From contig NC_018870.1 in NCBI RefSeq assembly GCF_000305935.1, positions 55,942 to 79,941 of the forward strand: 24,000 nucleotides of DNA, in the 5' to 3' direction. Position numbers and translations under genes: made by a program. This stretch comes from Thermacetogenium phaeum DSM 12270. Lineage in GTDB: Bacteria > Bacillota > DSM-12270 > Thermacetogeniales > Thermacetogeniaceae. Positions within the stretch are counted from its first letter, which is position 1. Each line of letters starts with the position of its first letter. The notes beneath the pieces were generated by a model. That model did not search any database. It had not been told where the DNA came from and saw nothing but the letters and a program-made list of their open reading frames with translations. Positions 3,256-9,758 of the stretch are shown here, piece after piece.

Positions 3256-3483
3256 GTGGAAAAAGAGGGGTTGATCCATTTGGATAGCGGAAGGGCAAAG
3301 GAGATTGTGGAGTCGCTGGGGGTTGTTGAGGTGCTGTACAACGGTTTCCCCGTCTGGATCGAACGGCTGAACGGGGATACGGCAGAGGTGCGCTTTCTGG
3401 AAACCGGGGGGCGGCTGGAGGTGCCGGTGACGGAGCTGGTGGAAGGTGGGTCCCTCGGGGAAGAGGGGCCGGGCGGCCCATAA
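3256..3483 (+). CDS. sspH: H-type small acid-soluble spore protein
   Basis: ..GRAKEIVESLGVVEVLYNGFPVWIERLNGDTAEVRFLETGGRLEVPVTELVE resembles the SspH pattern (RAKEI..S....V.YNG.PV.I........A.V......E..VP...L.E). TTG 3280 may be the true start (AGAGGGG at 3264-3270, 9-nt spacing). Confidence 0.75.
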   Translation: MEKEGLIHLDSGRAKEIVESLGVVEVLYNGFPVWIERLNGDTAEVRFLETGGRLEVPVTELVEGGSLGEEGPGGP

Positions 3484-3537: not shown

Positions 3538-3584
3538 AAAATTCGCTCCCGGGCAGGGGAACTCGCCCGGGAGCGAATTTTTTA
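3538..3584 (+). terminator. Rho-independent terminator after sspH
   Basis: Perfect 16-bp stem AAATTCGCTCCCGGGC (3538-3554) / GCCCGGGAGCGAATTT (3565-3580), 10-nt loop, then a T-run. An A-run on the 5' side makes it partly bidirectional. Confidence 0.8.
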
Positions 3585-3622
3585 AGAGCGACCTTAACGG
3601 CGTGTTCGGCCGGCAGGAAAGG

Positions 3623-3840
3623 GGTTGTCTCTCACGGCGCGGCGACCTTCAGGAGGTTGCTGCTCGTCCTTGACGGAGAAGCCCAGGCAGGAGGCCGAAT
3701 CGACAAGGGATGTAGAGACGGGTGTTCTCCGGTTGCGGGGACGAAAAGCCGGTCGGCTGCCGGCGGACACAAGTTTTTGTTGTGAATTAAACTGAAGATC
3801 CAGGAACGAGCGGCAAGAGGGAACCGGAACGTATTCTCAG
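3623..3840 (+). ncRNA. Unclassified structured RNA-like element, copy A (homologous to 9181-9405)
   Basis: No credible ORF. Colinear conserved blocks are shared with the element at 9181-9405. Closing helix GGTTGTCTCT (3623-3632) / AGAGGGAACC (3816-3825). Inner helix GGCCGA (3693-3698) / TCGGCT (3753-3758). The wobble positions are G-T on the + strand. Confidence 0.45.
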
Positions 3841-3999
3841 GGAAAGTCGAATAAAATGTATTTGGAGAAGGACTTCCCCCGCTCTGCCGAGAATTAATCT
3901 GCGGATTTCAGTTCCGCCGGATGGCTGGGCTGAAACCGAAAAGGGGCAGTTATATATTTACCAGAGGATGCTTGTTGTTGCAGGAGGGGTCGATAGGCT

Positions 4000-4866
4000 G
4001 TGGGTGGCTATCGGTTTCAGTCCGGGGTGTTCCTCGTCCTCTTTTCCGGCATCTGTTACGGTTTTATGCCGATTATCGCCATCTATGCCTACCAGGGCGG
4101 AGCTACGGCGACCACGCTGGCCTTTCTGCGCGCCGCGTTGGCGGCGGTTCTTTTTATTGTCTACCTGTTCTGGAGAGGCTTTCCGTCGAACGTTAACAGA
4201 AGGGCCGTTCTTATACTTTTAGCGGTTGGCGCCTTTGTGCAGCCCCTGGAGTCTTTCTGCTATGTGGCGGCCCTCCAGTACATCTCCGCCGGTCTGACCG
4301 TGCTCATCTTCTACACCTATCCAGCCTGGGTGGCAATCTGGGGTCTTCTTTTTCGCTGGGAAAGGCTGTCGCTGCGCAAGGGCATTGGGATTGCTGTTGC
4401 CAGCGCCGGTCTCGTTCTGGTCGTGGGCACCTCCCTGGGCCGGGTGAATGCTTACGGCGTCCTTCTCGCCATCACTGCCGCACTGGGCTGTTCTTTTTAT
4501 GTCATCTTCTCCAAAAGGGCGATCAGGGATGTAGGCCCCCTTTACGCTTCAACCATCATGTCCGTCTCCACGGCTGTAACGCTGGGAGTCATCGGAGCCG
4601 CAGCAGGCGGCCTTTCCTTCGGGATGCAACCGCTGGGCTGGTTGATGGCGCTGCTCTGTGCGGTGGTCACCGTCAATCTTGCCCTCTTGGCTTTTCTGGC
4701 GGGGCTCAAGATCGTGGGTTCCACCACTGCGTCCATCCTCTGCATGACGGAGCCCCTGACGACGGTCGTCTTCTCCGCCATCCTCTTTTCCCAGCACCTG
4801 ACTGCCAGCCAGCTCCTTGGCGGTCTGGTGATCCTTGCCGGCGCCGTCCTGGTGGTGAAGGGGTGA
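4000..4866 (+). CDS. EamA/DMT-family transporter (10-TM type)
   Basis: 288 aa and hydrophobic throughout, with two EamA-like halves (FSGICYGFMPIIA..; ..SASILCMTEPLTTVVFSAILF..L...QLLGG.LIL.G). GTG start preceded by GCAGGAGGGG. Its stop abuts the stop of the convergent gene with 0 nt between them. Confidence 0.85.
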   Translation: MGGYRFQSGVFLVLFSGICYGFMPIIAIYAYQGGATATTLAFLRAALAAVLFIVYLFWRGFPSNVNRRAVLILLAVGAFVQPLESFCYVAALQYISAGLTVLIFYTYPAWVAIWGLLFRWERLSLRKGIGIAVASAGLVLVVGTSLGRVNAYGVLLAITAALGCSFYVIFSKRAIRDVGPLYASTIMSVSTAVTLGVIGAAAGGLSFGMQPLGWLMALLCAVVTVNLALLAFLAGLKIVGSTTASILCMTEPLTTVVFSAILFSQHLTASQLLGGLVILAGAVLVVKG

Positions 4867-8932: not shown

Positions 8933-9140
8933 CAACTGAAGGGGGATGGCTTCGTTGTTCTCAAGAGGGGAGCTCCCCGTTGAAAGGACGCTCTCCTCAT
9001 ATTTTCCCTTATCGTCGCCGGCTTCGCCTCGTGGAGAACGCCGTCCGGTGGTGCCGTGCCGGGAGCGGCAGGCGGCGCTTCGGATGCGCCGGTCAGCTCC
9101 CTAAACCCTCAAACAGGAAGGATTCTATTCTATAGACCAC

Positions 9141-9405
9141 CATGCTGCCATCGGCGGCACCAACATAGGAACGAAAAAAGGGTTTATCCTTGTCGGCGCA
9201 GCGACCTGACGGAGGTTGTTACTCGCCCTTGACGAAGGAGCAGCAAACGGCAGCCGAATCGAGACAGGATGTCGAGATAGGCGACTCTGCGGCAGGGAAG
9301 GCGCATAGGAGCCGGTCGGCTGCTTATCTATCGACGAGTCTTAGGACGAGTTAAACCGAAAGATCCGGGAGCAAGCGCAAGGATAAACCGAAACGTATTT
9401 TCAGA
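9141..9405 (+). ncRNA. Unclassified structured RNA-like element, unit B1
   Basis: 5' hairpin GCTGCC-ATC-GGCGGC (9144-9158) + ACCAACA. Perfect 12-bp closing helix GGTTTATCCTTG (9181-9192) / CAAGGATAAACC (9378-9389). Inner helix GCAGCCGA (9250-9257) / TCGGCTGC (9316-9323). Small hairpin GTCG-AGATAGG-CGAC. Homologous to copy A. Confidence 0.45.
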
Positions 9406-9410
9406 GCAGA

Positions 9411-9718
9411 CACCCATGCCGCCTCCGGCGGCACCAACAGAGTATGAAAATACTCGACGGGTCTGCCGGCGAGCGACCTATGGAAGGCCGGGTAACAGGA
9501 CAGGCGAAGCGAGGATGACAGGTCGGGATGCGAGTACAGACACCTTGCGAGTTTCGATGGAATGGATTTGTAGCGAGGCCAAACGCTGCGATTGGCAGAA
9601 ACAAATTCGTAACATGTAACGCAGCATCCAGAGCTGTCCCGAAGCGAGCCGTCGTCCTGTCCGGCCTGGAATCGGGAGTCAAGCGGTAGACCGGCAGGAT
9701 ATGCGATCTATTTTCATG
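9411..9718 (+). ncRNA. Unclassified structured RNA-like element, unit B2 (diverged tandem copy)
   Basis: Same 5' hairpin and tail as B1: GCCGCC-TCC-GGCGGC (9418-9432) + ACCAACA. GNRA hairpin GAGTAT-GAAA-ATACTC (9440-9455). Conserved CGGCGAGCGACCT junction. Long-range helices CTGCCGG (9463-9469) / CCGGCAG (9691-9697) and GGCCGG+ACAGG (9486-9504) / CCTGT+CCGGCC (9656-9666). Hairpin GCTGCG (9585-9590) / CGCAGC (9620-9625). Shares the TATTTTCA tail. Confidence 0.35.
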
Positions 9719-9758
9719 ACAGAGAAAAAAGCAAGACGGAAAGAGAAAGGTGAAGAGG

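Follow-up and report, generated by a model that had tools for sequence, protein, structure and literature searches.

The window analysed in this study is a stretch of 24,000 nucleotides from Thermacetogenium phaeum DSM 12270 (contig NC_018870.1, positions 55,942 to 79,941), and positions refer to this window unless the genome (G000) is named. The sequence of interest, copy A, lies in the spacer between sspH and a gene encoding an EamA-family transporter. Both of these genes, like a DUF951 gene, were confirmed by Pfam, and the features of the locus are collected in Table 1 together with B1 and B2, two related elements situated further downstream. The sspH terminator, which was recognised by reading of the sequence, is absent from the output of a simple consensus scan. 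No promoter-like site was found by consensus scan ahead of copy A or B1.

Table 1. Features of the copy A spacer and of the related elements B1 and B2, in window positions.
Feature	Position	Strand	Basis
sspH gene, upstream neighbour	3256..3483	+	Pfam PF08141 SspH, E = 2.8e-18
sspH terminator, strong hairpin and T-run, abutting copy A	3538..3584		sequence reading (AAAATTCGCTCCCGGGC...GCCCGGGAGCGAATTTTTT)
Expected place of the IS110-type left end (hairpin box), unrecognisable in copy A	3586..3622	+	alignment against shuffles
Copy A core, diverged TwoAYGGAY-type fold	3623..3825	+	nhmmer against sister copies, pair counts, fold
Right-end (RE) box remnant GGAACGTATTCTCAGGGAAAG of copy A	3826..3846	+	aligned to the RE consensus AACCGAAACGTATTTTCAGGGCAG
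Promoter-like site CTGAAA-17-TATATT, upstream of the EamA gene and 3' of copy A	3930..3958	+	consensus scan only
EamA-family transporter gene, downstream neighbour	4000..4866	+	Pfam PF00892, E = 3.6e-36
B1, complete type-I element	9136..9409	+	preceded by AG at 9134-9135; GCTGCC/GGCGGC left-end hairpin; core 9181-9392; right-end box ends CAG
B2, type-II element in tandem with B1	9410..9722	+	same end boxes, other interior, without a TwoAYGGAY match

The initial annotation of this DNA had described a colinear match of 3623-3840 with 9181-9405. MAFFT alignment of 3600-3860 against 9160-9420 reproduced it for 3623-3846, a stretch of about 225 nt. Searching the genome with nhmmer, B1 as query recovered copy A at E = 3.7e-18 and copy A recovered B1 at 6.8e-19, and the identity between the two was about 69-70% by blastn. 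Because MAFFT, nhmmer (E of about 1e-18) and blastn agree, the similarity is real and far above chance. Copy A matches the remaining copies of its own genome at a comparable level (nhmmer E = 1e-15 to 1e-20, 68-72% identity, about 225 nt), including those that exceed the Rfam threshold discussed below, and its identity to the family consensus is 64%. No closer relative, A-like subfamily member or orthologue of copy A was detected in its own genome or among 40 related genomes, none of them congeneric.

Three copies of the element had been counted initially, whereas near-full copies alone number about 25 in the 2.94-Mb genome, beside about 15 fragments. In the nhmmer search with B1, 25 places exceeded 100 bits and copy A followed at a distance with 66 bits, an outlier and the most diverged of the copies. 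Alignment of the copies with their flanks defined a type-I unit of about 277 nt, which starts directly after a flanking AG with ACCACCATGCCGCC-nnn-GGCGGCACCAACAGAGGAACGAAAAAA, continues into a core of about 210 nt bounded by GGGTTTATCCTTG...CAAGGATAAACC, and ends with GAAACGTATTTTCAGGGCAG. B1, a complete unit of this type, is 92-97% identical to sister copies scoring 45-49 bits on RF01731, the Rfam model of the TwoAYGGAY family. B2, formerly regarded as the third copy, represents a separate repeat family, having in common with B1 only the first 45 nt or so, the last 17 nt or so and the GCGACCT block. This type-II family, about 319 nt in length, comprises about 20 copies in the genome, two of them inside CRISPR repeats; its interior is well conserved and carries several GGA motifs, with no Rfam match. 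Tandem arrangements in which a right end abuts the next left end, such as B1-B2, are frequent. A search with B1 in the 40 related genomes revealed many matches per genome (at least 15 in most) in four other genera of the same bacterial family.

At gathering thresholds, Rfam returned nothing in the window. When the search was run in E-value mode, B1 matched RF01731 with 32.1 bits (E = 0.005), below the gathering score of 43 bits; for copy A, the Rfam search that the initial annotation had recommended gave no relevant match even at E <= 10, in keeping with its remark that the sequence resembled no family known to its author. The related copies were more informative. Three copies of the same genome lie above the RF01731 threshold, at 48.6, 46.2 and 45.3 bits, twelve more score between 27 and 43 bits, and four copies from the related genus g8 reach 48.4-54.7 bits. 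Similarity of the g8 copies to B1 is confined to the core, where identity is about 80%, and both of their hairpin loops read CAUGGAUG (AUGGAU twice). The loops of the own-genome copies have drifted to ACAGGAU and CAGGGAA/CAGGGAU, which accounts for most of these copies falling below the threshold, and neither they nor copy A carry AYGGAY in both terminal loops. RF01731 had no match in 14 control genomes, including Escherichia coli. A T-box or another multi-copy riboswitch was also considered for the repeat and was ruled out, there being no Rfam match.

The description of the element as unclassified therefore had to be given up: own-genome copies about 70% identical to copy A, and copies in relatives about 80% identical to B1, pass RF01731. 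The initial annotation had itself stated that a confident Rfam hit would make the element a known one, and it is known by that rule because related copies pass the gathering score. Copy A belongs to the family by homology to members above the threshold, not by its covariance-model score. Judged on this homology, window positions 3623-3846 are a degenerate member of the known TwoAYGGAY family and not a new RNA class. The TwoAYGGAY motif was catalogued in 2010 by Weinberg et al. (PMC2864571), who rated it only as ‘probably’ RNA and scored it as not cis-regulatory; its Rfam label is ‘Cis-reg’.

The fold of the family was examined in an alignment of 54 sequences from five genera, in which the basal stem (P1), the 5' hairpin (H0) and the helices P3, P4, H1 and H2 were tested. 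For the 5' hairpin (GCGACCU/AGGUUGU), the outer stem of the Rfam model (GGUUG/CAACC) is the alternative pairing. Pairing was observed in 88.7% of the cells, and two-sided changes were counted in 29 of the 60 pairs, 184 cells in all. Shuffled controls gave 61 +/- 6 such cells, with none of 500 reaching 184, and sliding the 3' partners by 1-3 columns reduced the number to 14-28. Compensations include C-G to U-A in 16 sequences (P3), G-C to A-U and C-G to U-A (P4), G-C to U-A and A-U to G-C (H1) and C-G to G-C (H2). Tandem G-A mismatches, noted for the TwoAYGGAY family in PMC4333381, are nearly invariant: columns 92-93/106-107 and 115-116/151-152 are non-standard in 43-53 of the 54 sequences. The basal stem and two-hairpin fold of the family is backed by this covariation. 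The initial annotation had favoured an RNA read from the + strand on account of its G-T pairs, and the homologues agree with it. H0 contains two pairs, columns 26-47 and 28-45, that are almost always G-U (51 and 53 of the 54 sequences, respectively), and because these pairs are near-universal and specific to the + strand, the functional strand is the + strand of the alignment. Its assignment of the element to a structured, + strand RNA-like family was thus correct.

Two boxes enclose the core in the T. phaeum genome, and the same arrangement was seen in three related genera. The left-end box, of about 45 nt, consists of a conserved hairpin followed by CACCAACAGAGGA, and the right-end box, of about 17 nt, reads ACGTATTTTCAGGGCAG; the type-I right-end/left-end junction has the sequence ...TTTTCAGGGCAG|ACCACCATGCC.... 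The same boxes terminate an autonomous IS110-family element of 1.57 kb (about 1566 bp), which is present at G000 1245338, 2448155 and 2440128, the last with a nested IS, and as a 1560-bp variant at 2034829-2036388. It encodes a 404-aa protein with the domains DEDD_Tnp_IS110 (PF01548) and Transposase_20 (PF02371). Its left and right ends match both type-I and type-II elements, and copy A retains the right box only. The left-end hairpins differ across IS variants and small elements in a compensated manner (GTCACC/GGTGAC, TGTTG/CAACA, GCCGCC/GGCGGC). Homologous IS copies with the same end boxes were identified in three other genomes, one of them from a different family. The copy at G000 2440128-2443590 carries in its leader, on the opposite strand, an unrelated IS110-family element with a transposase of about 424 aa, a type with eight copies in the genome.

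The leader of the first IS variant, about 250 nt long, contains CAGGGCAG, which equals its own right end, and in the second variant CAGGGTAG is found both in the leader and at the right end. A donor guide within an IS110 bridge RNA should co-vary with the right end in just this way from one variant to the next (PMC11208160). No Rfam family was found for the IS110 leader, and only CRISPR-DR2 matched the flanks. Bridge RNAs of the small elements themselves were considered and either rejected or judged unproven. The right-end-like interior segment GGATGACAG of type-II elements stays constant although their right ends differ, and hence does not co-vary with them; the type-I loop CAGGGAA is similar to the right end in the own genome only and not in genus g4. 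No interior segment of either type was found to match or co-vary with ends or targets. An IS200/IS605-type origin with a TnpB/IscB omega-RNA, to which a subterminal hairpin and a conserved flank had pointed, was also pursued; TnpB and Y1 transposase (TnpA) genes do not adjoin the repeat ends, and the idea was dropped because the ends match the IS110-family element instead.

All 45 small elements bounded by both boxes are preceded by AG, and 24 of the elements are followed by G. One and the same bond of the CRISPR repeat, GTTTCAATTCCTCATAG|GTACGCTGAAAAC, is interrupted by four insertions, two of type-II elements and two of autonomous copies. The full repeat, GTTTCAATTCCTCATAGGTACGCTGAAAAC (Rfam CRISPR-DR2, 46.7 bits), is broken between ...CATAG and GTAC..., and the joined flanks of the two CRISPR-borne type-II elements are 100% identical to many intact repeats. 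This IS family appears to target the CRISPR repeat itself. The CRISPR-borne non-autonomous elements are 302 nt in length, and large arrays with this repeat extend over G000 about 2,439,400-2,464,500 and 2,204,600-2,211,600. When the joined flanks of the 45 small elements were compared with the genome, empty sites were recovered for the CRISPR-borne type-II elements only and for neither type-I elements nor copy A; at the orthologous loci of type-I elements in three g4 genomes, every site was occupied.

The core and its ends do not always travel together. The g4 genomes hold more than 20 small elements each; no close transposase homologue was found in g4 or g5, whose genomes are draft, fragmented MAGs in which such a gene may have been lost from the assembly, and co-occurrence of transposase and small elements therefore lends no support to a link between them. 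In a g4 subfamily the core lies in inverted orientation between the boxes (L065-L073; genomes G003, G010 and G016), and one orthologous locus (L027, with its counterparts G003:C26 and G010:C31) has the direct form in G016 and the inverted form in G003 and G010. Such a difference points to an exchange of modules in g4, or to inversion by way of the 13-bp arms of the basal stem. Genus g8 has the core without IS110 ends. Since the core occurs without these ends in g8 and in inverted orientation in g4, the RNA module is separable from the IS, and the TwoAYGGAY core seems to have several vehicles, of which the IS ends would be one. In the g8 copies (L042, L047, L074, L077), the core is preceded by short repeats of TGATCG(G), three or four of them, together with GC-rich palindromes, recalling the 5' GATCT-type arrays reported upstream of Pseudomonas TwoAYGGAY copies.

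Set against these sister elements, copy A is incomplete at its ends and altered in its fold. Alignment of its right-end box to the RE consensus scored 32, whereas shuffles scored 6.7 +/- 3.0 and none of them (0 of 500) reached 32; at the left end, global alignment to the left-end consensus was no better than chance, 81 of 500 shuffles giving an equal score. The enclosing helix proposed initially, GGTTGTCTCT/AGAGGGAACC (3623-3632 with 3816-3825), is formed, with 9 of 10 pairs. It is the basal stem P1 of the family. Two compensated pairs and a register slip of 1 nt set it apart from GGTTTATCCTTG/CAAGGATAAACC of B1, and the pairing of copy A requires this slip. The inner helix is likewise preserved, as had been claimed, but through one-sided changes only, its 3' strand TCGGCTGC being the same in copy A and B1. 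A third proposal, a hairpin changing from GAGA..TCTC to GTCG..CGAC at a constant position, corresponds to no helix of the family: it joins the 3' arm of H1 to the 5' arm of H2, and its segments fall in these two separate hairpins, each supported by covariation among the 54 homologues.

Counted in the family register, copy A forms 7 of 7 pairs in H0, 8 of 9 in P4, 6 of 9 in P3, 3 of 8 in H1 and 6 of 14 in H2. One hairpin retains a GGA loop, AAGGGAU (around 3701-3719), the second loop is without GGA, and only a single G-A is present where the family has tandem G-A mismatches. Substitutions affect paired and unpaired columns equally (39 of 116 and 34 of 98), and among the changed pairs 20 are broken and 11 kept. 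The minimum folding energy relative to shuffled sequence is modest for copy A (z = -2.1; -1.7 on the - strand) compared with B1 (z = -4.2), and the minimum-energy fold of copy A pairs differently from the family fold. Copy A no longer has a left end, a second GGA loop or one of the inner stems, and for this reason is probably a relic; on the evidence of its sequence, the simplest reading is that of an old, immobilised, decaying copy. Residual or new function is possible, since copy A folds somewhat better than shuffles and retains a compensated basal stem.

Both TwoAYGGAY loops were predicted to be CsrA sites by Gardner and Eldai (PMC4333381), a prediction repeated in the preprint 10.64898/2026.09.22.753630. 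The T. phaeum genome contains csrA (G000 590656-590811), and the intact copies thus combine two GGA loops with a csrA gene in the same genome. Within the bacterial family, csrA was present in all 12 TwoAYGGAY-positive genomes and in 4 of the 13 negative ones, an association that agrees with the prediction but is confounded by shared ancestry. The genera g2, g3 and g9, which are without csrA, are also without the repeat. To our knowledge, the protein FliW is the only known CsrA antagonist in Bacillota.

These observations bear on how copy A itself should be read. Loss of function is not the only way to explain its divergence: copy A could be a functional sRNA rewired from TwoAYGGAY, for instance a trans-acting CsrA-binding or other regulatory RNA made from the sspH-EamA spacer, whose changes reflect a new role. 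The basal stem held through two compensated pairs and the fully paired 5' hairpin GCGACCU/AGGUUGC (7 of 7) would fit such an RNA, as would a loop reading AAGGGAUGU, which is similar to the CsrA site, the lower z-score of the + strand, and the survival of copy A at 70% identity while its ends decayed. We nevertheless consider this unlikely: substitution rates are equal in paired and unpaired columns, the P3 and H2 helices are broken and the second GGA loop is lost; moreover, the sspH terminator abuts copy A with no promoter-like site upstream, and no A-like subfamily exists in the genome or the 40 relatives. A cis-acting leader or riboswitch-like element of the EamA gene is very improbable. The position of copy A upstream of this gene on the same strand and the ‘Cis-reg’ label of Rfam point in that direction, but about 150 nt and a promoter-like site intervene before the start codon, and sister copies are found on either strand, some in tandem, and their surroundings are unrelated. 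The scoring of the motif by Weinberg et al. as not cis-regulatory also argues against a leader, and no terminator or alternative fold sequestering a ribosome-binding site was seen.

It may also be asked whether TwoAYGGAY is an RNA gene at all, or whether these are DNA-level MITEs whose helices act as inverted repeats for a recombinase or as cruciforms or single-strand hairpins. The basal stem is indeed a perfect terminal inverted repeat of 12-13 bp, the core occurs in both orientations between IS ends, copy numbers differ widely, searches for a promoter of copy A or B1 were negative, and the motif carries only a ‘probably’ RNA rating. On the opposite strand, however, the H0 G-U pairs (51/54 and 53/54) become C-A mismatches, the tandem G-A mismatches and GGA loops are of RNA type (PMC4333381), and covariation extends to internal hairpins without an evident role as recombinase sites; the IS110 recombinase, for its part, acts on the left and right boxes and not on the core. 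A purely DNA-level explanation is therefore quite unlikely in our view. The preferred reading, which we regard as likely, is that copy A is an old degenerate copy of the element of about 277 nt with a TwoAYGGAY core, belonging to a non-autonomous IS110 passenger family and now decaying. It is most likely immobile, and rather not a functional gene nor an EamA leader.

The repeat looks like an IS110 passenger because of its IS end boxes, the AG in 45 of 45 elements and the insertion of sister elements and of the full IS at the same bond of the CRISPR repeat. The small elements would be MITE-like passengers bearing the end boxes of the autonomous IS110 element, whose DEDD recombinase may cut them out and insert them in trans at AG dinucleotides, with the bridge RNA of the autonomous copies guiding the recombinase on the passengers. 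Intact copies may then bind CsrA through their two GGA loops, which is the most plausible role for them and a less certain part of the model. Family membership by homology, the fold, the common ends and the precise insertion of sister elements, seen for type-II elements and the full IS only, are established; mobilisation in trans, transcription and CsrA binding are what we infer. More generally, the balance of evidence tilts slightly towards TwoAYGGAY RNAs spreading in this Bacillota family as IS110 passengers, moved in trans to AG and swapped or inverted between the boxes, with transposition setting the dosage of a putative CsrA-binding RNA.

For copy A itself the result is deflationary, as the RNA family has been known since 2010 and this copy is probably a relic. 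What is new is that TwoAYGGAY is packaged between ends of IS110 type, an arrangement that offers a concrete route of mobilisation through a bridge-RNA-guided recombinase. The preprint 10.64898/2026.09.22.753630 (Minerva) called the link between the mobile-element-like expansion and mobility of TwoAYGGAY and its mechanism or regulation unresolved. In addition, the CRISPR arrays of T. phaeum are disrupted by insertions of IS110 elements and of their passengers.

Like TwoAYGGAY RNAs described elsewhere, the elements have a basal stem enclosing two adjacent hairpins, tandem G-A mismatches and loops of the A-Y-G-G-A-Y type; they are multi-copy, often in tandem, in Clostridia-type Bacillota, and their basal stem is elongated, as the preprint 10.64898/2026.09.22.753630 gives for Bacillota copies. 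They differ in being framed by IS110-type end boxes, of which we found no mention in the part of the TwoAYGGAY literature consulted, and copy A differs further by scoring nothing and by its lost second loop. With the IS110 bridge RNA (Durrant et al. 2024, PMC11208160), the likeness resides in the autonomous leader of about 250 nt, which holds a segment equal to its own right end; the TwoAYGGAY core, unlike it, is not a bridge RNA and occurs without IS ends in g8. CsrB/RsmZ-type sRNAs share the GGA in hairpin loops, and every repeat-carrying genome of this bacterial family has csrA; those systems place many sites in one RNA, whereas the present units carry two sites each over many dispersed copies.

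A further comparison is offered by ISPpu9, an IS110 element of Pseudomonas putida that mobilises a MITE-like element, MITEPpu9, containing the sRNA gene ssr9; for this pair, experiments have demonstrated the A/B boxes, the AG core, copies in tandem and circles whose formation depends on the transposase (PMC12288879). The elements described here come from another phylum, carry TwoAYGGAY instead of Ssr9 as cargo, number about 45 rather than 8 and have a target that includes CRISPR repeats instead of REP, and mobilisation, demonstrated through excision circles for MITEPpu9, is putative here. In both cases, an RNA module devoid of transposase is flanked by sequences nearly equal to the boxes of the IS, the left one of about 43 bp and containing an inverted repeat, the right one of about 16 bp; an invariant AG is found at both junctions, copies occur in tandem, and a repeated hairpin sequence serves as the target of the parent IS.
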